Source of the DNA: Bacilli bacterium
GTDB lineage: Bacteria > Bacillota_I > Bacilli_A > RF39 > UBA660
Assembly (NCBI GenBank): GCA_017435485.1
Contig: JAFSEY010000009.1
Location: forward strand, 1,715-65,714
Reading direction: 5' to 3'
Length of the DNA stretch: 64,000 nt
The notes under the pieces are model-generated. The model was not told the origin of the DNA, ran no database searches, and saw only the letters and a program-made list of their open reading frames with translations. Position 1 is the stretch's first letter. Each line of letters opens with the position of its first letter. Shown here piece by piece: positions 19,540 to 49,666 of this stretch. A program made the position numbers and the translations under genes.

Positions 19540-20862
19540 TTAGTTTAATCCGCAGGTGTTATAAGCACCTAACAACGATAATATAAAGTTTATTAGTACC
19601 GGAAGAAAGAATATTACAATTGCTGCAATTAATCTTTTTACTGCTGTTGTTGCCGATTTTTTCAATTGGTCTTTATCTTGATTAATTGTTGCTTTTATAA
19701 AATCCATTGTACTTAAGGCAAACACTAAAATAATTGCACCATACTTCATAATATTAAGTGTTAAGTCTAAATAATAAGCTGGTTCGCAATCAATTCCAGT
19801 TGGACATTCTCTATTTCCTAAAAAACCTTCACAGCCTTCTTCTCCGCCCCAATCTAATTTATGTTTCCCAACACTTTGAATACGCAAGTTAGCATACTCA
19901 CCTAGACCCTCAGTGAGTTCATCTAAATTTTCGGCAATATTACCACTGTATTCCTGTCTTAGTTCATCAGTTAACGAAGCATCGTTTTTTAAAACTTGCT
20001 CACACGATTCATAAGCCAAATCAAATTTTGTGTTAACTACTTCCGCAACTTTATTAAATGATTCCGTATTCAATAAAAAATCTGGAATATCTTCCACTTG
20101 CCAATCGCTACGAATAAAATATGATTGGATTAATTGTTTTTTTATTTGAGTTTCTATTTCTGTAATGTATTCAGTTACTATTCCATTTTCATCTTCCCTT
20201 TTATTTTTCAAATTATTACAAAATGGATTTTCTGCTAAACTTTTATCTGGATAAACTGAAAAAGTTACTGTAAGATACTTATCTAACATTGAGTTAATTA
20301 CTTTTTCTTGTTCTGACATAAAATCAAAGGTTCTTTTTACTTCAGGTTTAAGATACCAATAATATTGACCAAATCTGCTAGAATATCCTTCTTCAATTTT
20401 ATTATAATAAAACATTGGTGCTCCACTACCGTTTGGTATAGCGTTTTTTGTAAAAATATACTCTGGACATTGAAATTTTTCAAACATAACTTTCAAATCA
20501 TCATCGCCATAATACCCATCGCCAGTTTTTAAATTATTAGTAGTAAATCCTGCATCCTTACCTGCAATTCTTTTAATTCTTACGACACCATCTGATCCAA
20601 GATACTCATAAACTAATTCATACTTTTTTTTGTTAACAGAATAAAAAACAGTAGAAGTTATATTATATACAACAGTACTTGCGTATGTTTTTTGAGGATC
20701 AAATGGCTTATCCTCCAATGAAGAAGTAGGAATTCTTAATACGGTATTTTCCCATTGACACACTTTTGTCGCATCTCCATAAGAGGAAGAGAGCTCAGTT
20801 GCTTCAACAAAAATTGGGCAAAAAATTGTTAACAAAAATAATAATTTTAATTTTTTTTTCAT
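19540..20862 (-). CDS. Secreted protein (Sec signal peptide) whose C-terminal ~75 aa is a copy of the two-helix membrane module found in ORFs 20871..21248 and 49235..49666
   Basis: It has a signal peptide MKKKLKLLFLLTIFCPIFVEA and a Cys-containing ectodomain. The C-terminus ...YGAIILVFALSTMDFIKATINQDKDQLKKSATTAVKRLIAAIVIFFLPVLINF aligns to both small paralogs. Confidence 0.5.
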   Translation of the reverse strand: MKKKLKLLFLLTIFCPIFVEATELSSSYGDATKVCQWENTVLRIPTSSLEDKPFDPQKTYASTVVYNITSTVFYSVNKKKYELVYEYLGSDGVVRIKRIAGKDAGFTTNNLKTGDGYYGDDDLKVMFEKFQCPEYIFTKNAIPNGSGAPMFYYNKIEEGYSSRFGQYYWYLKPEVKRTFDFMSEQEKVINSMLDKYLTVTFSVYPDKSLAENPFCNNLKNKREDENGIVTEYITEIETQIKKQLIQSYFIRSDWQVEDIPDFLLNTESFNKVAEVVNTKFDLAYESCEQVLKNDASLTDELRQEYSGNIAENLDELTEGLGEYANLRIQSVGKHKLDWGGEEGCEGFLGNRECPTGIDCEPAYYLDLTLNIMKYGAIILVFALSTMDFIKATINQDKDQLKKSATTAVKRLIAAIVIFFLPVLINFILSLLGAYNTCGLN

Positions 20863-20870
20863 AAACGCAC

Positions 20871-21248
20871 CTACTCTGTAAATATTCCATCTTTATCATT
20901 TATTTTGCATGTAGATGGTTCTTTTAAACAATTCGTTAAGCAATCAAATTTTTTTGTTTTATCAGCACCATCTACTAATGACATCACCGCGGTTATTACA
21001 TAAGGAATAAAGAAAATCACCACTGCTGCTATTGCCTTTTTCACTAAAGAACTAATAGCTATTTTAATTGCTTTGTCGTCATTTGATAAGACTGCTTTTC
21101 CTAATTCAAAAGATCCAAGTCCTATTAAAAGAATTGGAATAACTATTTTTAAAAATATAAATATATATCCAAGTATTTGAAATGTTTTTAATAAACCACT
21201 TTGATCACAAATTGCAAAGTCAGCTAACGTAAAAATTTTTTCCATCAC
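20871..21248 (-). CDS. Small two-transmembrane protein, member of a three-paralog pilin-like family (first gene of the T4SS-like cluster)
   Basis: It is 125 aa with hydrophobic helix 1 (FQILGYIFIFLKIVIPILLIGLGSF), a conserved motif ELGKAVLSNDDKAIKIAISSLVKKAIAAVVIFFIPYV, and a Cys-containing tail. Confidence 0.5.
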   Translation of the reverse strand: MMEKIFTLADFAICDQSGLLKTFQILGYIFIFLKIVIPILLIGLGSFELGKAVLSNDDKAIKIAISSLVKKAIAAVVIFFIPYVITAVMSLVDGADKTKKFDCLTNCLKEPSTCKINDKDGIFTE

Positions 21249-21306
21249 AAACCTCCAAAAGATTTATATTCTTTGACATAATTATACAATAAAAAAATAG
21301 CTTATG

Positions 21307-21846
21307 CTATCTTTTTTTGTTGTTTAGATGAAAATATTCTTCTAAAGTTAAGTAATCTCCACTATTATAAAGTTCTTTTGCTAAATTTTTACCGACATAT
21401 CTAAAGTGCCATGGTTCATATTTATAACCAGTTATATTCTCTTTTCCTTTCGGATATCTTAATATAAAGCCATATTTATAAGTATTGTTATATAACCATT
21501 TATATTCTTTACGATATTTTTTTATTAATTTAGATTCCGTATTTATTAAATCTATTGCCAGTCCAGTTTGATGTTCGGAATGACCAGGCATAGCTAAGTA
21601 TTTTTTGACATTTTCGACATTATCAACTCGTAGATATTCTTTTAATAATTTTTGTTGATATTTATAAGATCTATAACCACTGACAATATTTAAATTAATT
21701 TTATCTTTTTGAGCTGCTTGCCACATTACATCATATTGTTTTAATAATTCTTTATTTAGTTTTCGTGGATTAAAAAATCTAGATAATCTATAATTTTTGT
21801 TAACTATTAGTATTTTTTCTTTATTAAATTTAACATACTTTTTCAC
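21307..21846 (-). CDS. VanY-like D-Ala-D-Ala carboxypeptidase (peptidase M15B)
   Basis: The zinc ligands and motifs SGYRSYKYQ, AMPGHSEHQTGLAIDL and EPWHFRYVG are present. Confidence 0.8.
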   Translation of the reverse strand: MKKYVKFNKEKILIVNKNYRLSRFFNPRKLNKELLKQYDVMWQAAQKDKINLNIVSGYRSYKYQQKLLKEYLRVDNVENVKKYLAMPGHSEHQTGLAIDLINTESKLIKKYRKEYKWLYNNTYKYGFILRYPKGKENITGYKYEPWHFRYVGKNLAKELYNSGDYLTLEEYFHLNNKKR

Positions 21847-21914
21847 TATATCACCAATGTAATTCTATGCTAATTTTTAATTTACTTTAAACATATAATT
21901 TGTTAAAATAAATT

Positions 21915-22478
21915 ATGAAAGGATATGATAATATGCCTAAGGCAAAAAAAAGCAAAACTATTCCTACTAAAAATTATTATTTAGTAATTTTTATTATTAT
22001 AGCAGCAATATTGTTAACCTTATATGTGTTTAAAATGTATGAAGTAAAGAAAGCTGAAAAATATCAAGAAAGTTATTTAATTACTAGTGAAGCTGTCAGT
22101 TTAGAAATTAATGATTTAAACGAAATTAATCAAGTATTTATGGAAGCTCCAGAAACTTATTTTGTTTATATTGGTTATACTAAAGATGAAGATGTTTATA
22201 ATTTAGAAAAAGAATTAAAACCTATTATTGAGGAATATGGTTTAAAGGATGTCTTTTATTATATCGATGCTACTAATTTAAAGGAAGAAGCTAATTATCT
22301 TGATAAATTAAATGATAGTTTAAATTTAAAAGAAGATAAATTAGATGAGATTCCTACTATTATATTTTTTAACAATGACACTTATAAAATTATTAAGCGT
22401 GATGATGATAATATGATTAAAGCTGCTGACTTAGGCAAATTATTAGATATAAATAATATAGAAAAGATAAGCCAATAA
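21915..22478 (+). CDS. Membrane-anchored hypothetical protein
   Basis: It has one N-terminal transmembrane segment and an acidic C-terminal domain, with no motif recognised. Confidence 0.35.
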   Translation: MKGYDNMPKAKKSKTIPTKNYYLVIFIIIAAILLTLYVFKMYEVKKAEKYQESYLITSEAVSLEINDLNEINQVFMEAPETYFVYIGYTKDEDVYNLEKELKPIIEEYGLKDVFYYIDATNLKEEANYLDKLNDSLNLKEDKLDEIPTIIFFNNDTYKIIKRDDDNMIKAADLGKLLDINNIEKISQ

Positions 22479-22503
22479 GGCTTATTTTTTAAAGGAGTTA
22501 AAT

Positions 22504-23016
22504 ATGATAAATATAGTTTTATTTGAACCAGAAATACCTACTAATACAGGAAATATTATGAGAAGTTGTATCGCTACTAAATCTACCCTGCATTTAATTA
22601 AACCTCTAGGTTTTTCTTTAGATGATAAATACGTTAAAAGAAGTGGTGTCAATTATATAGATAAATGTAATTATAAAGTTTATGAGAATATAGAAGATTT
22701 TTATAATCAAAATGAGGGAACAATGTATTATTTTACAAGATACGGTCATAAACCACATACATCTTTTGATTATAGTGATTCTAATGAAAATATCTATTTT
22801 ATTTTTGGTAAAGAAAGTACTGGAATACCACCTAAGTTATTAAAACCCCATTTAGATAAATGCATGCGCATCCCAATGAGTGCTGATGTAAGAAGTCTTA
22901 ATTTATCTAATTGTGTTGCAATTGTCTTATATGAAGCTTTAAGACAACAAAATTATAATGATTTATTATTTGATGAACCACATAAAAGTAAAACTTTTAT
23001 TGAAGATGAAAATTAA
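22504..23016 (+). CDS. trmL: tRNA (cytidine/uridine-2'-O)-methyltransferase TrmL (SpoU/TrmH family)
   Basis: The SPOUT motifs NIVLFEPEIPTNTGNIMRSC and IFGKESTGIP are present, and a GGAG RBS lies upstream. Confidence 0.8.
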   Translation: MINIVLFEPEIPTNTGNIMRSCIATKSTLHLIKPLGFSLDDKYVKRSGVNYIDKCNYKVYENIEDFYNQNEGTMYYFTRYGHKPHTSFDYSDSNENIYFIFGKESTGIPPKLLKPHLDKCMRIPMSADVRSLNLSNCVAIVLYEALRQQNYNDLLFDEPHKSKTFIEDEN

Positions 23017-23026
23017 AAATATAAAG

Positions 23027-23853
23027 TTAATTTGAAACTTTATATTTTTTATTTTCTTTCTCTATTTGTTTTAAACTTTTATCAGGTGTAGGTAAATCTT
23101 CTGGCATCGTTCCGCCAATATCAGCAATTGCTTTCCTAACTTTTTTACCAACATTATAATGAACTTGATTAGCATTATTTTCTCCTTGAATATTATCTTT
23201 CTTTAATTTTTGTTCTGTTTGCGAAATTCTAAATAAGTTTGCAATAAGTTCGTCACTTCCCATGTTGTCTAATATATCTTCTCTATAGTTAAGATTTTTT
23301 CTTTTAGCAATATCATTTGCTATTTCTCCATTATATAGTCCTTTGTAACCAGCGTTATGAAATTTATCAAAATTTTTAACTCCAGAATTTTTGGCTGCAA
23401 TGTTTAAGGAATGATTTCCTTTCCTAGTTAAATCCCTTTGATAAAATCTTTTTTCTTCTTCAGTCAAACTAGAATATTCTTTTTCAGTAATTATCCATTT
23501 TCCTAGTTTGGATAGCAAAATAAGTTTGCGCGAGCGCGATTACTTCTTTTCTTGAATCTCCATTTTGTGCAACGATATAACATGCGTAACGACTAAGTTT
23601 ATAATCTTCAACACTTCTTTTACCACCTTTTCCAAGGTTTATCATTTTGGCTACCTTGACAAAATGATCATTAATATTAACATTGCTGTTTTCACAAGCG
23701 ATCAAAGCTTTTTTAATAACATTTTCAAACTTACGCCATTCTTTATAAGCAAAAACTAATTGCAGCTCTCTTGCTTCCCAATATTCTTTTCCAAGTTCAT
23801 CAATATGTTTTATATTTTCAAATATATTATGATTAATTTATAAATTATTCATT
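23027..23853 (-). pseudogene. DinD-like (Bro-N domain, DNA-damage-inducible protein D family) gene disrupted by a premature stop and a frameshift
   Basis: The minus strand from 23853 reads ATG AAT AAT TTA TAA, with a stop at codon 5, then continues in-frame NIFENIKHIDELGKEYWEARELQ...IACENSNV (Bro-N-like) to 23484. The remainder (…IGGTMPEDLPTPDKSLKQ, a DinD C-terminus) is in the +1 frame at 23518..23027. The frame switch lies next to the GC-rich element ttgcgcgagcgcgat. Confidence 0.45.
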
Positions 23854-23954
23854 ACATATCACTCCTTCATTAGTTATATTGCCAATAACATATTAATTTC
23901 CTTTTTATTTCATAAAAAAAGTAAAATAGTTTATTTATTTTACTTTTAAAAAAT

Positions 23955-26585
23955 TTACACTCCGGTTTTTAAATGTTTCTTACGTAAGATAGTCTTACGA
24001 ATAAAGTCTACTGGTATAACAGTAAATGCAAGGATTAAGACAAAAGCAAATTCTGATGCATGAAGTCCATAAGTTCTAAATAAGTCTCCGCCATGATAAA
24101 TTAAATATATTTGAACACTAACGATAAATGCTATTACTACTATAAAAACTTTGTTTTTAGTAATGTTTCCTAAAATGTTTAATCTTTGACTTCTCGCATT
24201 AAAGGAATTAAAGATGCCAATAAAAATAAATAACGCAAAATAAGCAGTCATTAAGTATATATTATCAGGTCCTGTTCTTATAAATGTTTTAATTATTGGT
24301 AATTTTAGAAATAAAATACATAAAATTGCTGAATATAAACCTGTAAAGAATATTTCCCCATACATATAAGAATTCATGATTGGTTCATTTTTAGCTTTTG
24401 GTGGTTCTTTCATATATTCTTTTAAAGGTGGTTCAAAGGAAAATGCTAAACCAGCAAAGGTATCCATAATCATATTTAACCATAGCATTTGAATTATTGT
24501 TATAGGTGTATCTATCCCAATAAATGGTCCAACAATTGATAAAACTAAAGCACACATATTAACTGTTAATTGATAGATAATAAATTTACGTATACTTTTA
24601 AAGATAGTTCTTCCATAAAGGATAGCTTTACTTATGGATAAAATATTGTTATCCAAAATGATTATATCAGCAGCTTCTTTGGCGACCTCTGTTCCACTTC
24701 CCATAGCAAAACCAACATCAGCTTTTTTTAATGCCGGAGCATCATTTACGCCGTCTCCTGTCATTCCGACAATTAATTCCATATCTTCAAGTATCTTAAC
24801 CAATCTAGATTTATCGCTTGGTAAAGCTCTAGCAATAACTTTGATATGCATAATTACTTTTTTAATTTCATCATCAGATAAGTTATTTAAATCATTACTT
24901 GTTAAAACCAAATCATTAGCATCATCAATTAACCCTACTTCCATGGCAATATTTTTGGCAGTATCTAGGGCATCTCCTGTAATCATAATAGTATGAATTC
25001 CAGCACTTTTAATTAACGATATTCCTTCTTTGGCTTCTTTTCTCAATTCATCTTTTATACAAACAATTCCTAAAATTGTACAACCATTTAATTTATCACT
25101 TGTATCATTATAAGCAAGTAATATTACTCTATTTCCTTTTTTAGTTAAATCTTTAATTTTATTTTCAAGATTATCTTTTTTTAACAAAATACTTTTTTTG
25201 CCAAACTTATCAACATAGTATCTAGCTTGTGATAAGATAACTTCAGTAGCACCTTTGAAATAGGTAAAACCATTACCTTTGGTAATTGTAACAGCACTAT
25301 ACTTTTTAGAACTATCAAATAAAATTTTGTTAATAACTCCAAAATTATTTACTTTGGCATCTTTAACGTAATTAAGTAAAGCTTGGTCAGTCATATTCCC
25401 GCCGATAATCTTTTCTCCAGCCACTTTACTTTCATTATTATAATAAAGATTTTCTATTATTAATTCGTGATAAGGTTTAAATCTTTCTAAATCTTTGATT
25501 GAATTAAACAAAGTTAGATCAGGACTATATATAACAGATACTTCTAGCTCTCCTTTTGTTAAAGTACCAGTCTTGTCAGTAAGCAAAACATTTAAACTTC
25601 CAGCGGTTTCTATTCCAACTAATTTTCTAACTAAAACATTATCTTTTAACATTCTTTTCATATTACTTGATAATACTAAGGTTATCATCATTGGAAGTCC
25701 TTCTGGTACTGCAACTACAATGATTGTAACACTTAATGTTAACGCATATAATAAATAACTAGACATCATTTGAAAATTTGTTAGTGTTGATAAAATTAAA
25801 TCTTTATCAAAATTATTTTTAATAAAAATTACTGCAAAAAGATATGATAGAGTAACCAAACCAGCCCCAATATAACCTATTTTACTGATAACATTAGCTA
25901 GTCCTCTTAAACGTAATTTTAAAGGACTTGTTGGATTTTTCTCTTGTAATTCTTTGGCTAACTTACCGTAAATAGTTTTATCCCCTACACTTGTCACAAT
26001 CATTGTTGCCTCACCACTGTAAACTACAGCACCACGATATATTTTATTTGCTTCTGTTGGAGGATTTATCTTATTTAATACGCTAAATTTCTTTGCTTCT
26101 TTTTTTTCACCATTTAATGAACTTTCATCAACTGACAAATTCCCTTTAAATAAATAACCATCAGCTGGAACTTTATCACCACTTTGTAAACTAACATAAT
26201 CACCTACTACTATTTCTTCTATAGGTATTTCTTTTAACTTATTTTGACGCCATACTTTAGCTTTTATTTTAGAAGCTTCTTCTTGTAATTTTTCAAATGC
26301 CGCTTCACTACCATACTCTGAAACTGAAGAAATAAACGATGCTAAAAAAACAGCTATTAATATTCCAATTGTTTCATATATATCAAAATCTTTAAAAAGA
26401 AATAATACTTTTATGGCTAAAGCAATCAATAAGATTCTAATAATTGGATCAGCAAGTGATTCATATAATAGTTTCAAAAAACTATTTTTTTTAGTTTGAG
26501 TAATACTATTTGTACCATTTTCTTTACGACTTTTTAATACTTGTTCATTATTTAATCCGTTCATTATAGGCTTGTCCTCCCACAA
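23955..26585 (-). CDS. Ca2+-transporting P-type ATPase (type IIA)
   Basis: It has the phosphorylation motif DKTGTLT, TGDALDTAKNIA, and the hinge motif VGMTGDGVNDAPALKKADVGFAMG, with ten predicted transmembrane helices. Confidence 0.85.
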   Translation of the reverse strand: MWEDKPIMNGLNNEQVLKSRKENGTNSITQTKKNSFLKLLYESLADPIIRILLIALAIKVLFLFKDFDIYETIGILIAVFLASFISSVSEYGSEAAFEKLQEEASKIKAKVWRQNKLKEIPIEEIVVGDYVSLQSGDKVPADGYLFKGNLSVDESSLNGEKKEAKKFSVLNKINPPTEANKIYRGAVVYSGEATMIVTSVGDKTIYGKLAKELQEKNPTSPLKLRLRGLANVISKIGYIGAGLVTLSYLFAVIFIKNNFDKDLILSTLTNFQMMSSYLLYALTLSVTIIVVAVPEGLPMMITLVLSSNMKRMLKDNVLVRKLVGIETAGSLNVLLTDKTGTLTKGELEVSVIYSPDLTLFNSIKDLERFKPYHELIIENLYYNNESKVAGEKIIGGNMTDQALLNYVKDAKVNNFGVINKILFDSSKKYSAVTITKGNGFTYFKGATEVILSQARYYVDKFGKKSILLKKDNLENKIKDLTKKGNRVILLAYNDTSDKLNGCTILGIVCIKDELRKEAKEGISLIKSAGIHTIMITGDALDTAKNIAMEVGLIDDANDLVLTSNDLNNLSDDEIKKVIMHIKVIARALPSDKSRLVKILEDMELIVGMTGDGVNDAPALKKADVGFAMGSGTEVAKEAADIIILDNNILSISKAILYGRTIFKSIRKFIIYQLTVNMCALVLSIVGPFIGIDTPITIIQMLWLNMIMDTFAGLAFSFEPPLKEYMKEPPKAKNEPIMNSYMYGEIFFTGLYSAILCILFLKLPIIKTFIRTGPDNIYLMTAYFALFIFIGIFNSFNARSQRLNILGNITKNKVFIVVIAFIVSVQIYLIYHGGDLFRTYGLHASEFAFVLILAFTVIPVDFIRKTILRKKHLKTGV

Positions 26586-26639
26586 TAAATATATGAAGTT
26601 ACATTTGTTTAATGATATAAATTTTTACACAAAAAAAAT

Positions 26640-26676
26640 AGGGTATGAACTTAACTATAAGCAAACCCTATTTTTA
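26640..26676. terminator. Bidirectional terminator-like hairpin
   Basis: The stem aatagggt...accctatt has T-rich flanks and lies between the P-type ATPase gene and the following ORF. Confidence 0.4.
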
Positions 26677-26681
26677 TATAA

Positions 26682-27077
26682 TTATTTTCTCGAACTTTTC
26701 ATTTCTATACTAGGAACTTCATAATCTAAAGCAACTAAATGGCCTAACATACATCCTAAACCCGATATTAAAGCTTGACTATCCGCATAAACAGCATCAT
26801 TCGAATATACAGGACTAACTCCAGCCTCATTTTTAACGAATTGAACCACTCCACTTTGCTTAAACCTCTCAATTTTATCTTGATCCAAGTCTACTTCATC
26901 AAACCCAACTGATTGCCCAACATATAAATGATAATCTTTATTAATTGTATCTTTTTTTCCATTAGGGGTAATTGATTCTGCTGAAACAGTTACTATTGCT
27001 TTAATTGGTTCTGCAGCTTGTGTAGATAATAATCCTATCTCATCTTTATTTATATATTCAACAAATACTTTATTCAT
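26682..27077 (-). CDS. Hypothetical cytoplasmic protein
   Basis: This is a 131-aa ORF with an RBS and no motif recognised. Confidence 0.35.
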   Translation of the reverse strand: MNKVFVEYINKDEIGLLSTQAAEPIKAIVTVSAESITPNGKKDTINKDYHLYVGQSVGFDEVDLDQDKIERFKQSGVVQFVKNEAGVSPVYSNDAVYADSQALISGLGCMLGHLVALDYEVPSIEMKSSRK

Positions 27078-27188
27078 AAAATCTCCTTTTCATAATTATA
27101 TTTTAACATAAAATCTAACAAAAATCAAATTCACCACTATTTTATACCACTTTAATGGATTATTTATTATAAAACATTATCTAATTCA

Positions 27189-27710
27189 TTAGTAGTTTTT
27201 ATTACAAACCATATCATACGTTCTATTCATCGGATCAAAAAACCAAAAATTATCCAAAGGATTAAATGTTAAATAAGCACTAAATATAAAAATAGAAATA
27301 ATAGCCAGAACTGCTAATTTATTACTTGTTTTTGATTTTATATTAATTAAAGATGTAATAAATTCTCCAAATACAATTGATAAGAATAATAGTATTAAAG
27401 TAAAAACTAAATTTTCATTGTAATTTAAATAAATTGGTATATAAATAATCAAAAAGAATATAATGCAACTTAAACTAGAAATTAAACATTTAGTAGTTAT
27501 ATTTTCTTCTTTATATTTAAATATTTTTATAATTAAGTAGAAAATTATATAACAAGTAAATATCATTTTCATATGTTGGAAAATACTTTCGTTTACTGGA
27601 AAGAATAAAGCAGTAAAATTATTTGGAAAATATCCATAAAGAAAATGAGCTGGAAAATTTAAAAGATATATTGAAACGCTTCTAATTAAAACTTTAATAA
27701 TATTTTTCAT
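27189..27710 (-). CDS. Polytopic membrane protein of unknown function, downstream of the ABC transporter gene
   Basis: It is 173 aa with 4-5 transmembrane helices and is probably co-transcribed with 27722..29770. Confidence 0.4.
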   Translation of the reverse strand: MKNIIKVLIRSVSIYLLNFPAHFLYGYFPNNFTALFFPVNESIFQHMKMIFTCYIIFYLIIKIFKYKEENITTKCLISSLSCIIFFLIIYIPIYLNYNENLVFTLILLFLSIVFGEFITSLINIKSKTSNKLAVLAIISIFIFSAYLTFNPLDNFWFFDPMNRTYDMVCNKNY

Positions 27711-27721
27711 ATTAAATTTTA

Positions 27722-29770: not shown

Positions 29771-29776
29771 TTCTTA

Positions 29777-29971
29777 TTATCTATATGGAATATATCCACC
29801 ATATGAATTATAATAATATGGATATGGTGCATATCCTGGATTATAGTAAGGCGCTACATTATAAATTGGTCTTGGTCTAGTTAATCCAACTGCTGCTCCA
29901 CCTACTAAAGCACCTGTTAAAAACGGAAAAATTATACGATCTCCATCTTTATAATAAGTATTATAATACAT
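29777..29971 (-). CDS. Small glycine-zipper membrane peptide with a Tyr/Pro/Gly-rich tail
   Basis: It is 64 aa with a GALVGGAAVGL glycine zipper and the tail YNPGYAPYPYYYNSYGGYIPYR. Confidence 0.35.
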   Translation of the reverse strand: MYYNTYYKDGDRIIFPFLTGALVGGAAVGLTRPRPIYNVAPYYNPGYAPYPYYYNSYGGYIPYR

Positions 29972-30194
29972 ACAAAAATCCCCCTTTTTGTTGTATTTTA
30001 TGCATAGCTCTTTTCATATGACTAAGCAAATATACCATACTTATATTTAAAAATAAAATTGCTAAAATTAATGTTTTGTACGACATTTTTTCATTAAATT
30101 TATTTATTGTTATACAATTTTATAAAATTAATATTTTTGAAGATTTAATAAATTAATTTTAAGCATATTTAAAATTTTTATATTGCTTGTTAAA

Positions 30195-30500: not shown

Positions 30501-30590
30501 TATAGGCAAACCACAAAAAAAAGAAGTTTAGATAATAGTTACGAAGTTAAAAATTTATTGGTGTTAACAAATTTATATCTTATCGAAAAA

Positions 30591-35942: not shown

Positions 35943-35943
35943 T

Positions 35944-38448: not shown

Positions 38449-38511
38449 CTTATTACCTTCTTTTTATTTTAGTATACCATTAAAGAAAAAAAATAACACC
38501 TTTATGAGATG

Positions 38512-40947: not shown

Positions 40948-41371
40948 TTAATAAGTGTCTTCCATATATTTCATAAATAGCATAAATAAGAGCAGTTAGC
41001 AAAGCAAATCCTATTAGTAATTTAAAAATTGTTCCTAAGGGAATTAGTTCTATAATAAAAGTTACAAATGTAATAATAAAACTATTTAATAAAGGAAGCA
41101 TTATTTTTAAACTATTATAATTTAAGGAATTTCGATCCAATTTAAATTTATAAACTAAATATTCAACTTCTCCTATTTTGCTTGGTTCTTTTTTCTTGCT
41201 CTTTTTATTATTTTTTTTCTTTTTACCTAATATTTCATCAACAGCTGGTTTAGTAAGAAAAAAGTAATGAAGAACAAAAATAACTAAGTAAATTACTAAA
41301 AACGATAAAATATAGTAAGCAACATTATTCATATAAAATCCTCTTTCTAAATAAAAAAACATTCCTCCCAA
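40922..41371 (-). CDS. Small membrane protein co-transcribed with leuS
   Basis: It is 149 aa with three hydrophobic helices and a Lys-rich loop, and overlaps the leuS start by 26 nt. Confidence 0.4.
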   Translation of the reverse strand: MGGMFFYLERGFYMNNVAYYILSFLVIYLVIFVLHYFFLTKPAVDEILGKKKKNNKKSKKKEPSKIGEVEYLVYKFKLDRNSLNYNSLKIMLPLLNSFIITFVTFIIELIPLGTIFKLLIGFALLTALIYAIYEIYGRHLLNVERKRGN

Positions 41372-41573
41372 AGGACGAATGTTATCGTGGTACCACCTTA
41401 TTTTTTTCTCGTTAATCTATAAAGGAATTACCCTAACACATCCAAAAGTAAGTTCATCAATTTCTTTTCTTAGTTTTCACCAACCACTAAGTCTCTACAA
41501 AAAGAAGTTTTGATTACTACTCTTTTATCCGCTGCTTAAAACTATTATACATAATTGTCTTTTTAAAAGCAAA
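41372..41573 (-). promoter_or_regulatory. T-box riboswitch leader (Leu) for the membrane-protein-leuS operon
   Basis: The minus-strand RNA contains AAGGUGGUACCACGAUAACAUUCGUCCUUUGGGAGGAAUGUUUUUUU, a T-box sequence with an overlapping terminator hairpin. An upstream candidate specifier loop ...GAACUUAC contains a CUU codon. Confidence 0.6.
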
Positions 41574-43973: not shown

Positions 43974-44072
43974 CCTCTTTTAGTATTCATAATTATGTTA
44001 TCATAAAAGTCTTTTTATTACAATTGCTAGATTTTTAAAAAATATACGTTATAATAATTACCGGGTGATATT

Positions 44073-44993
44073 ATGTTTAAATATTCTTTAGATAATAAAA
44101 GATATCATACATTAAATTATTTTTTGAAAAACAAGTTTAATTCAAAAGTTTTTAAAGTAAGCTTGAATGCCGGATTTTCCTGTCCTAATAAAAAAAATGG
44201 TAATGGTTGCATATTTTGTAGTGAGGGTTCAGGAGATTTTGGTGGCGATAAAGAAAAGGATTTAGTAACTCAGTTTAATGAAGTAAAAGACAAAATTAGT
44301 AAGAAATGGCCGAATAGTAAATATATTGCCTATTTTCAAGCTAATTCTAATACTTATGCGCCATTAGAAGAATTAAAAGAAAAATACGAAACAGTAATTA
44401 ATCTTCCAAATGTAGTTGGCCTTGCAATAGCAACGAGAAGTGATTGTTTGGAAGATGATATTTTAGATTATTTAGCAGAACTTAATAGAAAAACTTTTTT
44501 AATGATTGAATTAGGATTACAATCTATGCATGATAAAACTCTAAAGTTAATTAATCGTGGTCATGATTTAAAAAACTTTGAAGAAGCTGTCAAAAAGTTG
44601 CAAGAAAGAAATATTTTTATCACTGTTCATATTATTAATGGCCTACCAGGTGAAAATCAACAAGATATGATTGAAACCGTAAAATATTTAAATAGTCTAG
44701 ATATAAATTCCTTAAAAATTCATATGCTTAGTGTTTTAAAGGATACTTCATTAGAAAGATATTATGAACAAAAAAAATTCCCTATATTATCCAAGGAAGA
44801 ATATATTGACATTGTTTGTGAGCAATTACAATATTTAAATGAAAATATTATAATTGGAAGAATTACAGGAGATCCTGATCCGTTAAAATTAATAGTTCCA
44901 AATTGGCTCATTAAAAAGTTTTGTGTTTTAAATGATATTGATAAAAAAATGAAAGAATTAAATATTTATCAAGGTGATAAAGTTAATAAATAG
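44073..44993 (+). CDS. Radical SAM protein, TIGR01212 (YhcC/YtqA-like) family
   Basis: A CxxxCxxC-type cluster (CPNKKNGNGCIFCSEG) and a family-typical C-terminal domain are present. Confidence 0.75.
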   Translation: MFKYSLDNKRYHTLNYFLKNKFNSKVFKVSLNAGFSCPNKKNGNGCIFCSEGSGDFGGDKEKDLVTQFNEVKDKISKKWPNSKYIAYFQANSNTYAPLEELKEKYETVINLPNVVGLAIATRSDCLEDDILDYLAELNRKTFLMIELGLQSMHDKTLKLINRGHDLKNFEEAVKKLQERNIFITVHIINGLPGENQQDMIETVKYLNSLDINSLKIHMLSVLKDTSLERYYEQKKFPILSKEEYIDIVCEQLQYLNENIIIGRITGDPDPLKLIVPNWLIKKFCVLNDIDKKMKELNIYQGDKVNK

Positions 44994-45074
44994 AATTTAT
45001 TTGATTACAAAATAAACCTGTACTAATTTAAAATAGTTTATTTTTGATTTATATTAATGACAAAAATAGAAATG

Positions 45075-45112
45075 TGATAATTTGCTCTAAAAAATTACTT
45101 ATTATATAATGA
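45075..45112 (+). promoter_or_regulatory. Sigma-A-like promoter of small-peptide gene copy 1 (TTGCTC-17 nt-TATAAT)
   Basis: It was read from the sequence. A near-identical promoter (TTGCTC-17-TATAAT) lies at about 45514-45551 for copy 2. Confidence 0.4.
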
Positions 45113-45175
45113 CTTTGGATATATTTAATGCGTTAGGTGCACTCCGTTACATTTACGTAAAGGAGGTGAGGTTTT

Positions 45176-45253
45176 ATGACAAAAAGAGAATTTTCTCAAT
45201 TTATTATAATTATCCTCCTATTTATCTTAGTATTTATAATACTATTTAAATAA
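45176..45253 (+). CDS. 25-aa hydrophobic peptide MTKREFSQFIIIILLFILVFIILFK; type I toxin-like
   Basis: An AAAGGAGGTGA RBS lies 8 nt upstream, and a 5' UTR segment CACUCC can pair with the SD. It has a single transmembrane helix with a charged N-terminus. Confidence 0.45.
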   Translation: MTKREFSQFIIIILLFILVFIILFK

Positions 45254-45256
45254 AAA

Positions 45257-45293
45257 AGTACACTAACGCTCAAAGCTTGAGTTTTAGTGTACT
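45257..45293. terminator. Strong bidirectional hairpin (agtacactaa...ttagtgtact, 10-bp stem plus an inner ctcaa/ttgag stem) directly after the peptide ORF
   Basis: It was read from the sequence. An identical hairpin occurs in the inverted copy at about 30303-30340. Confidence 0.5.
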
Positions 45294-45335
45294 AACCAAA
45301 ATTTAGGAATGTACCTAACCTTGCAAAATTAGATA

Positions 45336-45415
45336 TATCCTTTTTTATTATATTCAAGTTGCCTTGACATATTTAATATAACATAAATGCAATAATTTGA
45401 CAATTAGTAAATCAT
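45336..45415 (-). promoter_or_regulatory. Conserved 80-bp segment carrying a convergent minus-strand promoter (TTGTCA-17 nt-TATATT) aimed at the peptide ORF; candidate antisense-RNA promoter
   Basis: The same segment is repeated at 45775-45856, and a diverged copy occurs at about 30195-30270 (reverse complement). Confidence 0.4.
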
Positions 45416-45617
45416 TATAAATTTGTTATATACTTTTGATTAAAATATTAATATTATAATTATAAACATCCATTTTTAGTCCACATTCATGACAAATATA
45501 AAAATGTGGTAATTTGCTCCTAAAAATAACTTAGTATATAATTTTTTCGGATACATTTGAAAAGTCGGGTGTTTTCCCTTTCAAAAATCTTTAGATTAAA
45601 GAAAGGTGGTGATAATT

Positions 45618-45695
45618 ATGACTAAAAGAGAATTCTCTCAATTTATTATAATTATACTATTGTTCTTTATAGTAATAACTTTATTATATAGATAA
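45618..45695 (+). CDS. 25-aa hydrophobic peptide MTKREFSQFIIIILLFFIVITLLYR; second tandem copy
   Basis: It has a GAAAGGTGGTGA RBS. A 5' UTR CCCTTTC can pair with the SD. A hairpin follows at 45706-45736. Confidence 0.45.
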   Translation: MTKREFSQFIIIILLFFIVITLLYR

Positions 45696-45906
45696 TAAAA
45701 ACATCTGATTTCAACTAAAGTTGATTTCAGATGACTATCCAGAAGGGATTACATCTGGTTCTAGCAATCAAATGTATCCTTTTTTTTATTATATTCAAGT
45801 TGCCTTGACATATTTAATATAACATAAATGCAATAATTTGACAATTAGTAAATCATAATATTTTATAAAAAAAGAAATTAATCTAAGTTGATAATTTCTT
45901 AAATTA

Positions 45907-46455
45907 CTATCTATTAACTGTTAATAAGTTAATTACAAAAAGCAAGAATAAACATACATTATAATTTACAATATATTTACCAAATTCCCCAAATGCTACT
46001 AACATATCAGCTGCACATACTATCCAAGCTTCCCTGCTTTTAGGCATTGATTCTTTAATAGATGCATTTTCCTTTAAATTAATTAATGGACAAATTTTTC
46101 TAGCAACTAGATGATGAAACATATGAGTTCTGATAATACTTTCTTCTTCTTCATCGATATTGTAATAATATTTAGCATTTAATACACTTGTTTTAGGATG
46201 TTCTAAATATGAATTTTCCGGTTTTTCTGTACGTTCTCCATAAAAGAAATCATGTAATAATGCTGGTCTTACAATATGTTTGTAATCAAAGTTAAAGAAT
46301 TTAGCTAATTTATAACTTAAATAAGAAACTCTTCTACAATGATCGTATTTATTTGTATTACCGTGATGACGGTCTTTTTTTAATAATTTAAAATTTTCAT
46401 CATTTAATATGTCTTTGGCTAACTGAAGAAATTCTTCATCTTGACTATTTGTCAT
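45907..46455 (-). CDS. HD-domain phosphohydrolase
   Basis: The motifs H...HD (ALLHDFFYGER) are present with upstream His residues, and the protein is 182 aa. Confidence 0.6.
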   Translation of the reverse strand: MTNSQDEEFLQLAKDILNDENFKLLKKDRHHGNTNKYDHCRRVSYLSYKLAKFFNFDYKHIVRPALLHDFFYGERTEKPENSYLEHPKTSVLNAKYYYNIDEEEESIIRTHMFHHLVARKICPLINLKENASIKESMPKSREAWIVCAADMLVAFGEFGKYIVNYNVCLFLLFVINLLTVNR

Positions 46456-46532
46456 ATTTCCTTTTCACCTCGAACTATCAAATTATAGCATATATTATAT
46501 AAAAATGCAAATTTCCATCCTAAATTGGCACT

Positions 46533-47744
46533 CTAAGAAAAATTAAACATTAGCCAATTTGGCTTAAATATCATTAAAATTCCAATTAAAAGCATGATTA
46601 TCGCACCGATTAAGTGTGAGTATTTAGTATATTTTGTTGTTAATCCAGTCACTTTAAAACTAATCATTGCTATAGTAAATATTATTAAATCATCTAACAA
46701 AAAGAACAAAATATAGACAATTAAGTATAATAAAGCTTTTATTCCTGTAATATTATTGATTGCTAAAATATTACTAAATACTACAGGAAGTCCTGCTGAA
46801 CAAGCTAGTTCAACAATATTTACTGATATAGCTAAACCAATTACACCGATAATTGATAGAAAAATACTCTTTTCGCTCGTAAATTTCTTTATTTTAGCAA
46901 ATGTCCTTTTTCTTTGACTTTCATCAACAATCTGACATCCAGCATCTTTTTTTCGTTCATTATAGTAATTTCTAAAGTTAAATAAACTTGCTAAAACAGC
47001 TAAAATACCGATTATTACTTGAACTATTTTTACGTTAGTAAAGTTTACGATAATAGTTAACCATGACATCATAAAAGCTAAATAAATCAAAGCTGAAGTT
47101 AGTAAGAAAGTAACTCCAAGTATCCACATTTTTTTACGATCTTTCATATTGATTAACATGCTGATTAAAAATATCAACACCCACATTGCGCAAGGATTAA
47201 AGCCATCAACTAAACCAATAACTACACTTGCAAGCAAAATACTTACCTTTTTAGGATTAATCTCACCTAATAATGGTATTTTTATATTAGATTCATCAAT
47301 TGTTATCTTTTCTTTTTCATAATATTCATCGATATTATCTTTAGTAATCTTTTTATTTAAGATTTTATCAACAAAATCAATATAAGTCCCCTCTTGGTAT
47401 GCTTCAACTATCTTTTTTATCTCAGAAGAGGTATCATCGCTATATCCTACTATAGTTTTACTTCCAATTACGGTAAATGGAACATAAGGACTTGATTCAT
47501 CAAAAACACCTTTAACTAAATCTAGTTTCTCGGCATTAACTTTATTGTAGTTTACTTCAAAATAATGAATTTCAATATTTTTCTTTTCTTTATATTCATT
47601 TAAAAATTCTTTTTCACTTTGACAATGCGGACAGTCTTTCGAATAGAATAAATAAATGTCGATAACTTTTTGTTCATCTGAAGAAACTAATATAGGAAAT
47701 AATATGAATAAGAATAAACTAAATATATATATAACTTTTTTCAT
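46533..47744 (-). CDS. Thiol-disulfide oxidoreductase fusion: signal peptide plus extracytoplasmic thioredoxin-fold domain (CPHC) plus a CcdA/DsbD-family transmembrane domain
   Basis: The N-terminus has SKDCPHCQ, and the C-terminal domain has six transmembrane helices with GFNPCAMWVL, a CcdA-like motif. Confidence 0.6.
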   Translation of the reverse strand: MKKVIYIFSLFLFILFPILVSSDEQKVIDIYLFYSKDCPHCQSEKEFLNEYKEKKNIEIHYFEVNYNKVNAEKLDLVKGVFDESSPYVPFTVIGSKTIVGYSDDTSSEIKKIVEAYQEGTYIDFVDKILNKKITKDNIDEYYEKEKITIDESNIKIPLLGEINPKKVSILLASVVIGLVDGFNPCAMWVLIFLISMLINMKDRKKMWILGVTFLLTSALIYLAFMMSWLTIIVNFTNVKIVQVIIGILAVLASLFNFRNYYNERKKDAGCQIVDESQRKRTFAKIKKFTSEKSIFLSIIGVIGLAISVNIVELACSAGLPVVFSNILAINNITGIKALLYLIVYILFFLLDDLIIFTIAMISFKVTGLTTKYTKYSHLIGAIIMLLIGILMIFKPNWLMFNFS

Positions 47745-47752
47745 AAACCCTC

Positions 47753-48007
47753 CTAATTTTCAATGATATTTTTAATTTCTTCTAAAGTTTTTTCGCCATC
47801 TAAACGGGCAATTAAGTTATCATTTTGATAGAATAAAATTACTGGTAAAATATCATTTACCTCATATTGTTTAACAATGTCTTCATCCATATCGTAATCA
47901 TATTCAATTATTTCAATATTTGGATAATTCTTTTTTAAAATATCCCAATATTTATGCATTTTTAGACAAGCAGAACACCACATTGCCCCTATTTTAATTA
48001 TTTTCAT
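47753..48007 (-). CDS. Small thioredoxin/glutaredoxin-like protein (CxxC)
   Basis: It is 84 aa with WCSAC, and overlaps the upstream gene by 14 nt. Confidence 0.55.
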   Translation of the reverse strand: MKIIKIGAMWCSACLKMHKYWDILKKNYPNIEIIEYDYDMDEDIVKQYEVNDILPVILFYQNDNLIARLDGEKTLEEIKNIIEN

Positions 48008-49127
48008 GAGCCACCTCTAATAATTTAGTTACTTCAGATTTAAATATATTAATAAACTCATTAAGTTCTTCTTTAGTAGTATTATAAGACAAACTAATTC
48101 TGATACTGCTTTTAGCTCTTTTTTCATCATTTGTTAAGGATAAAACGGACTTAGATAAAGAATTTGTACTTGAACATGCAGTTTGTGTAGAAATATATAT
48201 TTCATGTTTTTCTAAAGCATGAAGCAAGCTTTCTGGCTTTAATCCAATAACACTTAAATTAAGGATATGAGCTATGCATTTTTCATTACTATTTATTTTA
48301 ATATTTTCATTGAAAACTAATTCTTTTTGTAAATATTCATTTAATTTTTTTATTTGTTCATAACTTTCCAATTTTTCATATGCTAGGCGTAGTGCTTTAG
48401 CCATTGAAGCGATTAAAGCAACTGTTGGAGTTCCACTACGATATTTTGTGGTACTCTTTCCACCATGAATTAAAGGAATTATTTCAATACCTTCTTTTTT
48501 TATTAATCCTCCAATCCCTTTAATACCATAAAATTTATGAGCTGAAAAGCTAGCCAAATCAACATTAGTTAGATTAACTTCTATTTTTCCAACTATTTGT
48601 GTAATATCTGAGTGGAAAACAGCATTAGAATTTTCTTTAATTAATTTACCTATTTTATTAATTGGCTGAATAATACCTATTTCACTATTTACAGCACCAA
48701 CGCTAACCAAAATTGTATCTTTTCTTAATAATGACTTTAAATGTTCTAAATCAATAATGCCATTACTATCACTATCTACAAAGTCAACTTCGTATCCTAA
48801 TGTCTGAAGATAACCAATTGGACCATAAATTGATGAATGTTCAAAATTGGTTGTGATGATATGTTTACGATTAGGATGTTTTAAACAAATCCCCTTTATT
48901 GCCGTATTATTTGATTCACTTGATCCACTTGTATAAATAAGTTCATTTTCTTTAATATTTAATATGTTAGTAATTTGTTTAGTGGCTGCGTCAATTAAAT
49001 CTTTGCTTTTACTTCCTAAATCATGTAGCGAGTTTGGATTTCCTATAAATTCATTTGAAACTTTTAAAAATGTATCTAATACATCTTTATGCACTGGAGT
49101 TGTTGCTGAATAATCCAAATATATCAT
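47994..49127 (-). CDS. Cysteine desulfurase (class V aminotransferase, NifS/IscS-like)
   Basis: A PLP lysine (SFSAHKFYG), a His near the N-terminus (HSSIYGP), and an active-site Cys region (ISTQTACSS) are present. Confidence 0.8.
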   Translation of the reverse strand: MIYLDYSATTPVHKDVLDTFLKVSNEFIGNPNSLHDLGSKSKDLIDAATKQITNILNIKENELIYTSGSSESNNTAIKGICLKHPNRKHIITTNFEHSSIYGPIGYLQTLGYEVDFVDSDSNGIIDLEHLKSLLRKDTILVSVGAVNSEIGIIQPINKIGKLIKENSNAVFHSDITQIVGKIEVNLTNVDLASFSAHKFYGIKGIGGLIKKEGIEIIPLIHGGKSTTKYRSGTPTVALIASMAKALRLAYEKLESYEQIKKLNEYLQKELVFNENIKINSNEKCIAHILNLSVIGLKPESLLHALEKHEIYISTQTACSSTNSLSKSVLSLTNDEKRAKSSIRISLSYNTTKEELNEFINIFKSEVTKLLEVAHENN

Positions 49128-49234
49128 AATATCGCCTTCTTTTAATAAAATGTAATATTATTATACTATAAAATAGATTCTTTGTTAATAAATTTGACCA
49201 CAAAAAAACCCAATTAAGGGTATTTGTATAAAAA

Positions 49235-49666
49235 TTAATTTTCTCCAGTTTTTTCTTCAGTTTTTTCTTCAGTTTTTTCGCTATATGTTGCATCTTTAGC
49301 AGATTCTACAGCGGTTTTACAAGCTCCATCTTTTTTATTAGGATTAGTAATACAAGCTTGACATATTTTATAATCTTTTTCAACATCATCAAATCCTATT
49401 ACAATTCCAAAAATAAAACTTACTAAGAATGGTAGGAAAAATATTACTACTCCAGCAATAGCTCTTTTCACTAAAGAACTTGTAGCACTTTTAATTGCTT
49501 TATCATCATTAGCAACTACTGCCTTTCCTAAATCCATCATACCAAAAATAATTAATAATAGTGGAATTGCTATTTTAAATACATATAAAACATATCCAAC
49601 AAATTGCCAAATTGGTGAAGTTCTTGTACAAAACTGAGTAACTTCTGCAAGAATATTAAACATCAA
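49235..49666 (-). CDS. Small two-transmembrane protein, paralog of 20871..21248, with a C-terminal (EKTE)n repeat; last gene of the Tad-like locus
   Basis: DLGKAVVANDDKAIKSATSSLVKRAIAGVVIFFLPFLV aligns to both the 125-aa protein and the C-terminus of the 440-aa protein. The 3' end contains three 12-nt tandem repeats (cagttttttctt). Confidence 0.5.
   Translation of the reverse strand: MMFNILAEVTQFCTRTSPIWQFVGYVLYVFKIAIPLLLIIFGMMDLGKAVVANDDKAIKSATSSLVKRAIAGVVIFFLPFLVSFIFGIVIGFDDVEKDYKICQACITNPNKKDGACKTAVESAKDATYSEKTEEKTEEKTGEN

Follow-up and report, generated by a model that had tools for sequence, protein, structure and literature searches.

The question raised by this locus is why two gene clusters of one bacterial genome, one resembling a type IV secretion system (T4SS) and the other a Tad-like pilus locus, should each carry a small membrane protein of the same two-helix family, and what these proteins are. 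The window (the whole stretch of DNA analysed, 64 kb of contig JAFSEY010000009.1 from the Bacilli bacterium assembly GCA_017435485.1) was compared with related loci from other genomes, designated below by L numbers. The comparison points to putative pilins of a known Pfam family and to a supercluster that is continuous in many relatives and appears split here. Three open reading frames (ORFs) bearing the module were confirmed at the following coordinates, all on the minus strand.

49235..49666, minus strand: putative junction pilin ('pilA-type'), two-helix and T4SS_pilin-like; 143 amino acids (aa) as listed, 142 aa from the likely ATG at 49663.
20871..21248, minus strand: putative second small pilin ('pilA-type' paralog); 125 aa as listed, 124 aa from the likely ATG at 21245.
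19540..20862, minus strand: putative modular pilin ('pilB-type'); 440 aa, with a signal-peptide-like N-terminus, an ectodomain and a C-terminal two-helix module.

The listed start codons of the two small ORFs are GTG (125 aa) and TTG (143 aa), and the ATG one codon further in is the likelier start of both. Because the genes are on the minus strand, the 125-aa gene heads the T4SS-like cluster (21248 down to 9400) in transcription order; the 143-aa gene is the final gene, in the same sense, of the pilus-like locus (~60103 down to 49235).

A sequence-only reading of this DNA had proposed that the three proteins share a module of ~75 aa, made up of helix 1, a polar/basic loop and helix 2. Pairwise comparison by BLASTP with composition correction bore this out: the 125-aa and 143-aa proteins were 49% identical over 98 aligned aa (E 2e-28), the C-terminus of the 440-aa protein (residues 364-435) was 32% identical to the 143-aa protein over 72 aa (E 4e-12), and the 440-aa and 125-aa proteins were 38% identical over 60 aa (E 1e-9). 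The identity of 50% over full length that had been given for the small proteins was right as to the level but not the extent, since only these ~98 residues align and the C-terminal tails diverge; the Cys-containing tails described for both are present. Residue conservation was scored in 234 unique module-bearing ORFs from related loci. The loop pattern (D-L/F-G/I-K-A ... DDK/DKD ... K-R/K) and the helix prolines are conserved across this set, P35, D45, K48, A49, R68, F76 and P79 are near-invariant, and the 125-aa protein retains every invariant residue of the family. Because the loop residues are conserved in the 234 ORFs, the match extends beyond the hydrophobic helices; similarity by chance or by hydrophobicity only was ruled out by the composition-corrected E-values together with the conserved polar loop. 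A six-frame scan with hidden Markov models (HMMs) built from relatives of the module found exactly three members in the window.

In the AlphaFold2 (AF2) model of the 143-aa protein the two helices span residues 17-52 and 55-88. The model of the 440-aa protein (predicted local distance difference test score, pLDDT, 78) places helices 362-394 and 397-430 in the C-terminal module (362-430), which follows a signal peptide, a beta domain (~31-180), a helical bundle (~181-329) and a Cys-rich linker; no informative structural or sequence relatives of this ectodomain were found. The small members have only ~17-20 residues ahead of helix 1, with no signal-peptide-like segment, and signal peptides occur only on the extended paralogs. 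A Cys is present within 30 residues before helix 1 in 231 of the 234 ORFs and after helix 2 in 230, and inside the hairpin in 37 only. As the sequence-only reading had it, the 440-aa protein is predicted to be a pilin module with a large grafted ectodomain, an architecture common in the family.

The same reading had taken the family to be undescribed. It is already in Pfam as PF18895 (T4SS_pilin) and was used, with PF04956, to catalogue VirB2-like pilins beside virB4 in Patescibacteria (Quinonero-Coronel et al., 2025; PMC12102498); in another paper the PF18895 domain counts as a hallmark of that group. Database relatives of the 143-aa protein numbered 158 at E ≤ 1e-3, nearly all from metagenome-assembled genomes (MAGs) of uncultured 'Bacilli bacterium', and many already carry a precomputed PF18895 assignment. 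When aligned relatives were scanned one by one, 32 of 36 matched PF18895 at E ≤ 0.01 (best E 4.8e-8) and four gave weak matches to T4SS_CagC, the Helicobacter VirB2 family. Among 1.84 billion cluster representatives (50% identity), a profile search matched 9,328 at E ≤ 1e-3, of which 3,949 reached E ≤ 1e-10, and in many of the 9,328 the module forms the C-terminus of a 200-460-aa protein. The resemblance to VirB2/TrbC-type pilins suggested earlier is upheld by PF18895, by the weak CagC matches, by a helical hairpin compatible with that of R388 TrwL and by gene position upstream of VirB6-, VirB3-, VirB4- and VirD4-like genes; the fold itself is not diagnostic, structure searches matching any helical hairpin alike.

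The relation between the two clusters was examined in species-representative genomes, in which 511 loci encode a relative. The best 80 of these come from MAGs of uncultured gut Bacilli or 'Tenericutes' (Candidatus (Ca.) Coprovivens, which belongs to the GTDB order RF39, Ca. Ventrenecus and Anaeroplasma sp.), with a few labelled Muribaculaceae. Five loci (L014, L044, L049, L081 and L087) are titled 'uncultured Muribaculaceae bacterium' although their cluster is of the Bacilli type, probably through mis-binning or mislabelling.

In the more distant relatives L005, L007 and L008 both loci form a single co-oriented cluster. Its filament part runs from a large surface protein through DUF5411, an RcpC-like protein, an ATPase, two membrane proteins, two prepilin-like and two pseudopilin-like proteins to a 363-aa protein; then come a pilin (108 aa), a second pilin-module protein (138 aa), the VirB6-like and VirB3-like proteins and, at the end, a VirB4 N-terminal piece, VirB4, a SpoIID-domain protein, a 272-aa protein and VirD4. 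The window shows one-to-one synteny with this order by BLASTP: the junction pilin of L007 and the 143-aa protein share 59% identity, and the C-terminal 96 aa of the 440-aa protein are 49% identical to the second pilin of L007 (138 aa). In the window the halves of the supercluster are separated by 28 kb, and each has a small pilin gene. The split layout, with a small pilin before the 440-aa gene, was also found in relatives, the filament half in L001-L004 and L009 and the T4SS half in L089. Among 35 species-level loci with at least 8 kb of flank on both sides, 20 were fused (a contiguous, co-oriented cluster with the pilin at the junction), 8 had filament genes upstream only, 5 had a T4SS downstream only and 2 had neither; in L076, of the last class, a VirB6-like gene follows an array of eight pilin genes. 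Of the 52 related loci whose downstream flank is at least 8 kb long, 39 have T4SS genes downstream of the pilin. Gene order and strand were constant across the loci surveyed, and for this reason the window is better explained as a split version of one ancestral-looking supercluster, with a paralog left at each half. That the family ties a T4SS-like cluster to a pilus-like locus was thus well seen; that components are shared between two apparatuses was not shown, and a split supercluster with a paralog on each side accounts better for the arrangement.

Orthology within the arrays is consistent with such a split. The 143-aa protein grouped with the first (junction) pilin of every related array (25 of 25 top matches). 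The nearest relatives of the 125-aa protein were also first-position pilins (23 of 25), and its best match was the 143-aa copy of the same genome, which identifies it as a junction-type paralog that has diverged. The 440-aa protein grouped with the last array member, adjoining the VirB6-like gene (24 of 25). The related loci contain 1-8 module genes in tandem, the first members always of 104-155 aa, the middle ones with a median of 376 aa and the last ones of 112 to 766 aa. Extended members in relatives carry Peptidase_M15_4 plus Amidase_3, Amidase_3 plus NlpC/P60, or T6SS VgrG3-like/GH46-type ectodomains (examples are L076:12603-15552, L035:14077-15828, L024:5387-6727 and L029:4965-6218), and the hydrolase-bearing members are often last in the array, beside the VirB6-like gene.

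Ratios of nonsynonymous to synonymous substitution rates (dN/dS) were calculated against the close relatives L089 (T4SS side) and L009 (filament side), and were 0.13 for the 143-aa gene (against L009), 0.11 for the 125-aa gene (against L089) and 0.11 for the 440-aa gene. All three pilin genes are under purifying selection, and the 125-aa paralog is maintained. The T4SS-side pilin proteins were 82-85% identical to their counterparts in the close relative and the Flp/TadE-like proteins 70-75% (the two small prepilin-like proteins 72-75%, against L009), as compared with 93-99% for VirB4, the VirB6-like and CpaF-like proteins and the two membrane proteins; faster divergence of pilins than of motors is the pattern expected of exposed structural parts. 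The dS value itself varies ~15-fold within the cluster, from 0.06-0.14 (658-aa protein, VirB4) to 0.66-0.90 (pilin genes), and this unevenness suggests allelic replacement or recombination between strains at genes for surface components.

A predicted promoter precedes the junction pilin.

49689..49717, minus strand: predicted sigma-70-type promoter TTGACA-17-TAAAAT (11/12 match), in the 57-nt spacer upstream of the junction pilin and followed by the ribosome-binding site (RBS) GGAGAG.

An equivalent site (TTGAC[A/T]-17-TAnAAT, counted at a match of at least 10/12) was present upstream of the junction pilin in 79 of 82 distinct related loci (from the set L001-L088), as against 7.5% of random 140-nt control windows. 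Its conservation at the junction pilin marks it as an internal promoter in mid-supercluster, and the predicted expression fits a highly expressed subunit. The spacer upstream of the 125-aa pilin contains a small hairpin with a T-run, a perfect -10 element (TATAAT) and the RBS GGAGG. A gene for a VanY-type D-Ala-D-Ala carboxypeptidase (21307-21846, minus strand) lies 58 nt upstream of this pilin, and L089 has it at the same position. It was considered as a detached enzyme of the array and rejected, as it has no signal peptide and no counterpart was found beside the arrays in the loci searched by BLAST (a set to which L089 does not belong); it is treated as an incidental neighbour of the 125-aa gene.

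The remaining genes of the T4SS half, in transcription order, were assigned as follows.

17271..19523, minus strand: VirB6-like polytopic membrane protein, 750 aa; syntenic with a 983-aa protein of L007.
16926..17252, minus strand: small membrane protein of 108 aa, VirB3/TcpE-like, with a sub-threshold match to Pfam TcpE (E 0.0028); 47% identical to its L007 counterpart.
16391..17002, minus strand: VirB4 N-terminal piece (TraC-like), 203 aa; NCBIfam VirB4_plasma positions 97-279 (of 894), E 4.4e-13.
14604..16388, minus strand: VirB4-type ATPase, 594 aa; Pfam P-loop_TraG, AAA_10 and DUF87; 74% identical to its L007 counterpart.
12598..14574, minus strand: 658-aa protein without a Pfam or NCBIfam match; 31% identical over 251 aa to an 841-aa protein of L007.
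11739..12584, minus strand: 281-aa conserved cluster protein without a family match; a 272-aa gene lies at the same position in L007, and L089 has an ortholog.
9400..11679, minus strand: VirD4-type coupling protein, 759 aa; T4SS-DNA_transf E 2.4e-52, TrwB_AAD_bind and TraG-D_C; last gene of the T4SS half.

The 125-aa and 440-aa genes stand directly upstream of the VirB6-like, VirB3-like, VirB4 and VirD4 genes. The 750-aa protein matched the NCBIfam conjugation families MMCAP2_0566, pLS20_p028, Mbov_0396 and CD3337/EF1877 at E 1e-9 to 1e-11, all below cutoffs. VirB4 is ~29% identical to the VirB4 proteins of 2,182 Firmicutes plasmids, among which 1,435 are conjugative. It appears split (203 plus 594 aa), as it does in L007 and L089, and orthologs of the 203-aa ORF bear Pfam PF26593 (TraC-like); as listed, this ORF overlaps the TcpE-like ORF by 77 nt, and its listed start is probably too far upstream. 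The 658-aa protein is possibly a cell-wall-hydrolase component, the basis being the Pfam SpoIID domain of its syntenic 841-aa homolog in L007. No relaxase or integrase was found in the ORFs scanned (most of the longer ORFs of the window). With no relaxase nearby and wide conservation of the cluster, the T4SS does not look mobile.

The filament half, again in transcription order, comprises the following genes upstream of the junction pilin.

56367..60103, minus strand: large secreted protein (993 aa) and a 252-aa protein with a signal peptide and a C-terminal transmembrane segment, at the head of the filament half; no family matches.
55125..56351, minus strand: RcpC/CpaB-like protein (265 aa; RcpC E 1.2e-4, sub-threshold) and DUF5411 protein (138 aa, with an N-terminal hydrophobic helix; E 2.9e-56).
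54003..55109, minus strand: secretion-superfamily ATPase, CpaF/TadA-like with VirB11 affinity, 368 aa; Pfam T2SSE E 4.7e-29.
52306..53987, minus strand: a pair of polytopic membrane proteins, of 262 and 297 aa, in the TadC/TadB position and highly conserved in relatives.
51713..52225, minus strand: a pair of small prepilin-like proteins, of 75 and 91 aa, in which the N-terminus M[KR]EATGELNMTV precedes a hydrophobic helix and a Cys-containing C-terminal part.
50732..51701, minus strand: a pair of pseudopilin-like proteins, of 161 and 157 aa, whose N-terminus, M[KR]E(A/S)IGGTW, leads into a hydrophobic helix.
49724..50719, minus strand: 331-aa conserved protein at a possible TadZ/CpaE position; no Pfam, NCBIfam or PDB match; 48% identical to its L007 counterpart (363 aa).

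Orthologs of the 993-aa protein occupy the same position and vary in length, reaching ~2,100 aa in some relatives, and the RcpC-like and DUF5411 genes are syntenic in all related loci. The closest solved relative of the ATPase was CpaF (74 bits, E 1.3e-19), ahead of VirB11 (58 bits) and FlaI (57 bits), and among NCBIfam models it scored 115 bits against VirB11, 107 against the TadA family and 101 against TrbB, all below cutoffs. The N-termini of the prepilin-like and pseudopilin-like proteins are conserved across ~80 and ~88 orthologs, respectively; they match neither the Flp G/XXXXEY nor the type IVa G/FTLxE motif, and none of the four proteins matched Flp_Fap or TadE in Pfam. A TadB/TadC identity of the 297-aa and 262-aa proteins was not borne out, with no T2SSF or other match (Pfam at E ≤ 5, NCBIfam, and phmmer and profile searches of the PDB), and no mutual paralogy of the two was seen by BLASTP or hhalign, the alignments being shallow. 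All family searches were negative for a TadZ identity of the 331-aa protein. No ORF of the filament locus matched a prepilin peptidase (TadV/CpaA, Peptidase_A24) or a ParA/CpaE-type protein, although a peptidase gene may lie elsewhere in the genome. The earlier label 'Tad' is therefore borne out by the CpaF-like ATPase and not by T2SSF, the Flp motif, TadZ or a prepilin peptidase, none of which was detected; a divergent type-IV-filament system with a CpaF/VirB11-family ATPase is the more defensible prediction for this half. A minimal sub-clade (L070, L078 and L080; also L023, L032, L042, L046, L064 and L074) has a reduced locus at ~5800-10400 in each, with the large surface protein, DUF5411, RcpC-like protein, ATPase, two membrane proteins and pilin; apparent AddB/AddA-type genes (judged by size and N-terminal sequence only) and LemA-like housekeeping genes follow the pilin.

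The GC content is ~27% and composition is even throughout the window. The clusters are flanked by housekeeping genes, among them those for tyrosyl-tRNA synthetase (TyrRS), a P-type ATPase, SpoU, RmuC, a class-V aminotransferase and, by synteny, leucyl-tRNA synthetase (LeuRS). A 131-aa ORF (26682-27077, minus strand), situated between the genes for the P-type ATPase and DUF6512, weakly matched archaeal flagellins (E 0.002); it has no hydrophobic N-terminus and is not pilin-like. The corresponding spacer of L089 is only 86 nt long (4213-4299), which makes the ORF a strain-specific insertion. The segment from the P-type ATPase to SpoU (23027-23759) contains unannotated ORFs of 163 and 73 aa in the window and a 274-aa Bro-N protein in L089 (7011-7835), and looks like a small variable island. 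A CotZ-type spore-coat domain (E 2.2e-14) is encoded at 62571-63014 (minus strand), in a genome otherwise resembling those of genome-reduced RF39-type Bacilli.

Taken together, it is on balance probable that the module proteins are PF18895-type pilins of a relaxase-less monoderm T4SS which, in most relatives, is fused to a divergent type-IV-filament locus. The case is computational throughout, and pilus formation is what we infer from it. Each module would insert with both termini outside and its basic loop facing the cytoplasm: where a signal peptide and an ectodomain are present, the N-terminal flank must be outside, which places the loop in the cytoplasm and both Cys flanks on the extracytoplasmic side. 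The two outer Cys could then form a disulfide closing the hairpin. The abundant small subunit would be extracted from the membrane and, with VirB6/VirB4 as its platform, oligomerise to form a short pilus or a conduit across the wall, and paralogs sharing the module would co-assemble with it and display their N-terminal ectodomains, in the window a beta/helical domain and in relatives an amidase, NlpC/P60, M15 or VgrG3-like peptidoglycan hydrolase. The adjacent filament system would probably provide cell-cell contact for VirD4-dependent transfer, with VirD4 feeding the substrates.

Several results weigh against this interpretation. The window proteins fall below the 26.6-bit gathering threshold of PF18895: the 143-aa protein scored 20.6 bits (E 4.9e-4, over profile positions 4-71 of 71), the 125-aa protein 12.5 bits (E 0.16), and the 440-aa protein gave no PF18895 match at all in the Pfam scan. 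No window pilin matched PF04956 (TrbC/VirB2) at E ≤ 1, a search of all PDB sequences with the family profile returned GPCR and ion-channel noise (E ≥ 0.07) and no pilin, and tblastn of the pilin against 72,556 plasmids gave no match, which sets it outside standard Gram-positive conjugation modules. The long cleaved leader typical of VirB2 is absent from the small members. Orphan pilins occur among housekeeping genes in L027, the other of the two loci with neither neighbour, and in L033 (outside the 35 loci, its upstream flank being short), and the minimal sub-clade has no Flp-, TadE- or TadZ-like genes between its ATPase locus and pilin and no T4SS within 10 kb. Enzyme-bearing members are explained equally well by a simple membrane anchor, and a pilus has been demonstrated for the PF18895-type family in no organism. 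The Foldseek search proposed by the sequence-only reading, with the model of the 143-aa protein against the PDB, gave nothing below E 3.9. Because PF04956, solved pilins and Foldseek gave no match, the three ORFs are filed as PF18895-type proteins, VirB2-like by context and architecture, short of demonstrated VirB2 homologues.

Instead of polymerising, the module might serve the T4SS channel as a membrane anchor or docking subunit, comparable to VirB3, PrgI or TcpD/E-type proteins. It would then build no pilus and would tether ectodomains (especially hydrolases) by the VirB6/VirB4 translocon for local opening of the wall, with its small copies as stoichiometric channel subunits. The amidase, NlpC/P60, M15 and lysozyme-like fusions, often encoded immediately beside the VirB6-like gene, agree with this, as do reviews in which the known Gram-positive T4SSs have membrane-anchored hydrolases and no pili, and structure searches do not tell a pilin from other helical hairpins. 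A separate VirB3/TcpE-like gene is already present in the cluster, however, and the profile matches are to PF18895 and CagC pilins, with none to VirB3, PrgI or TcpE. The conserved, near-consensus promoter of the first-position gene is what would be expected of an abundant structural subunit, and the fast divergence of pilin genes between strains whose motor genes are near-identical fits surface exposure; an anchor without a pilus is accordingly rated rather unlikely. A prophage holin-endolysin pair was also considered and rejected on the predicted N-out/C-out topology, the T4SS and filament context in hundreds of genomes and the absence of phage genes.

Alternatively, the small pilin may be serviced mainly by the CpaF/VirB11-like ATPase, the 'Tad-like' half being its pilus-biogenesis arm and the supercluster one machine. 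VirB11 is needed for T-pilus biogenesis in Agrobacterium, and the ATPase scores against VirB11 as high as against TadA models; in split clusters the junction pilin remains with the ATPase half, and in the minimal sub-clade ATPase and pilin occur without Flp- or TadE-like genes, again with no T4SS within 10 kb. Such a division of labour is nevertheless quite improbable: the closest solved relative of the ATPase is CpaF and not VirB11, most loci encode prepilin-like subunits with a class-III-type N-terminus that would be its natural substrates, five or six loci pair the pilin with a T4SS and have no ATPase locus nearby, and every additional module-bearing paralog lies on the T4SS side. Lowest in our estimate, and very improbable, is that the T4SS half is the transfer module of an integrative and conjugative element (ICE), with pilin-like genes as accessories and the similarity to the pilus locus owed to a transposed copy. 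VirB4 and VirD4 are homologous to proteins of Firmicutes conjugative plasmids, and their partners weakly match mycoplasma ICE and pLS20 families; among the window ORFs, by contrast, neither a relaxase or integrase nor a repeat boundary was found, housekeeping genes flank the clusters and the composition is even. Species-representative genomes have the same cluster in the same order at hundreds of loci, VirB4 is no more than ~29% identical to its plasmid counterparts, and the pilin is on none of the 72,556 plasmids.

The family is known; new are the Bacillota host, the fusion to a type-IV-filament locus and the modular, enzyme-bearing subunits. VirB2 homologues have been stated to be absent from Gram-positive T4SSs, with Patescibacteria as the sole monoderm exception (PMC12102498; PMC12857230, December 2025), and the origin of the Patescibacteria VirB2-like pilins was left open (PMC12102498). 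The literature search returned no paper combining RF39 with VirB4 and no description of a T4SS fused to a type-IV-filament locus with PF18895-type pilins. Bacillota are now seen to have the PF18895 pilin family in a monoderm-type T4SS on the chromosome, with arrays like those of Patescibacteria, and this opens the questions whether monoderm T4SSs are able to build VirB2-type filaments, whether the Patescibacteria system and its pilins came from Bacilli-like donors, and whether the abundant uncultured RF39-type gut bacteria depend on contact with other cells. A doubtful but conceivable extension is that the RF39-type T4SS and filament form one contact-dependent machine, in which the filament grabs a neighbour, the hydrolase-decorated conduit breaches its wall and VirD4 drives the transfer or exchange of macromolecules, with an epibiotic, parasitic or predatory lifestyle; Bacilli or their ancestors would then be a possible source of the Patescibacteria VirB2-like pilins.

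The nearest known system is the T4SS pilin arrays of Patescibacteria (PMC12102498; PMC12857230), which belong to the same Pfam family, the likeness being at family level. In both, small two-helix proteins are encoded beside a chromosomal monoderm (MPF-FATA-like) T4SS, usually without a relaxase, as tandem divergent paralogs (2-11 in Patescibacteria, 1-8 here) in reduced genomes. The present host is one of the uncultured RF39-type gut Bacilli (Bacillota), the cluster is joined physically to a type-IV-filament locus, unlike in the Patescibacteria papers, N-terminal ectodomains including peptidoglycan hydrolases are present, a Cys is conserved on both outer flanks, and the window copies are sub-threshold. 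The VirB2/TrbC/TraA/TrwL pilins (PF04956; R388 TrwL, PDB 8s6h) are likewise hairpins of ~70 residues with a basic inter-helix loop and both termini outside, as predicted here, and their genes adjoin VirB3, VirB4 and VirB6 homologues; in function, the putative 'staple' of flanking Cys would correspond to the cyclisation that joins head and tail of T-, RP4- and H-pilins. Unlike them, the present proteins resemble neither PF04956 nor solved pilins in detectable sequence, a long cleaved leader is absent from the small members, and the system sits in a monoderm envelope and has no VirB5, B7, B9 or B10, in contrast to diderm T4SSs.

The filament half shares with Tad/Flp (type IVc) systems a CpaF-like ATPase, a weak RcpC/CpaB match, two polytopic proteins at the TadB/TadC position, and four further proteins, two of them small and two mid-sized, that begin with a short charged stretch ahead of a hydrophobic helix; it differs from them in having no T2SSF, no G/XXXXEY motif (M[KR]EATGELNMTV instead), no TadZ/CpaE and no prepilin peptidase in the locus, and its ATPase scores equally against VirB11. 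The mycoplasma ICE and pLS20 modules provided the best NCBIfam matches of the VirB6-like protein and the VirB4 N-terminal piece (MMCAP2_0566, Mbov_0396, Mbov_0397 and pLS20_p028), and the mycoplasma ICE hosts are a related lineage (Bacilli/'Tenericutes'). These matches are far below curated cutoffs, however, and the present cluster, unlike those modules, is chromosomal, widely conserved and without a relaxase nearby. In Streptococcus sanguinis, PilB and PilC are modular type IV pilins, in which an assembly module is joined to a functional ectodomain, and as minor subunits they decorate the filament. Their fold and machine (a type IV pilin with a class III signal peptide) are unrelated to those considered here, and their grafted domain is C-terminal, whereas in the present family it is N-terminal to the VirB2-like hairpin; the locus would thus offer a natural example of modular pilins on a VirB2-like scaffold.

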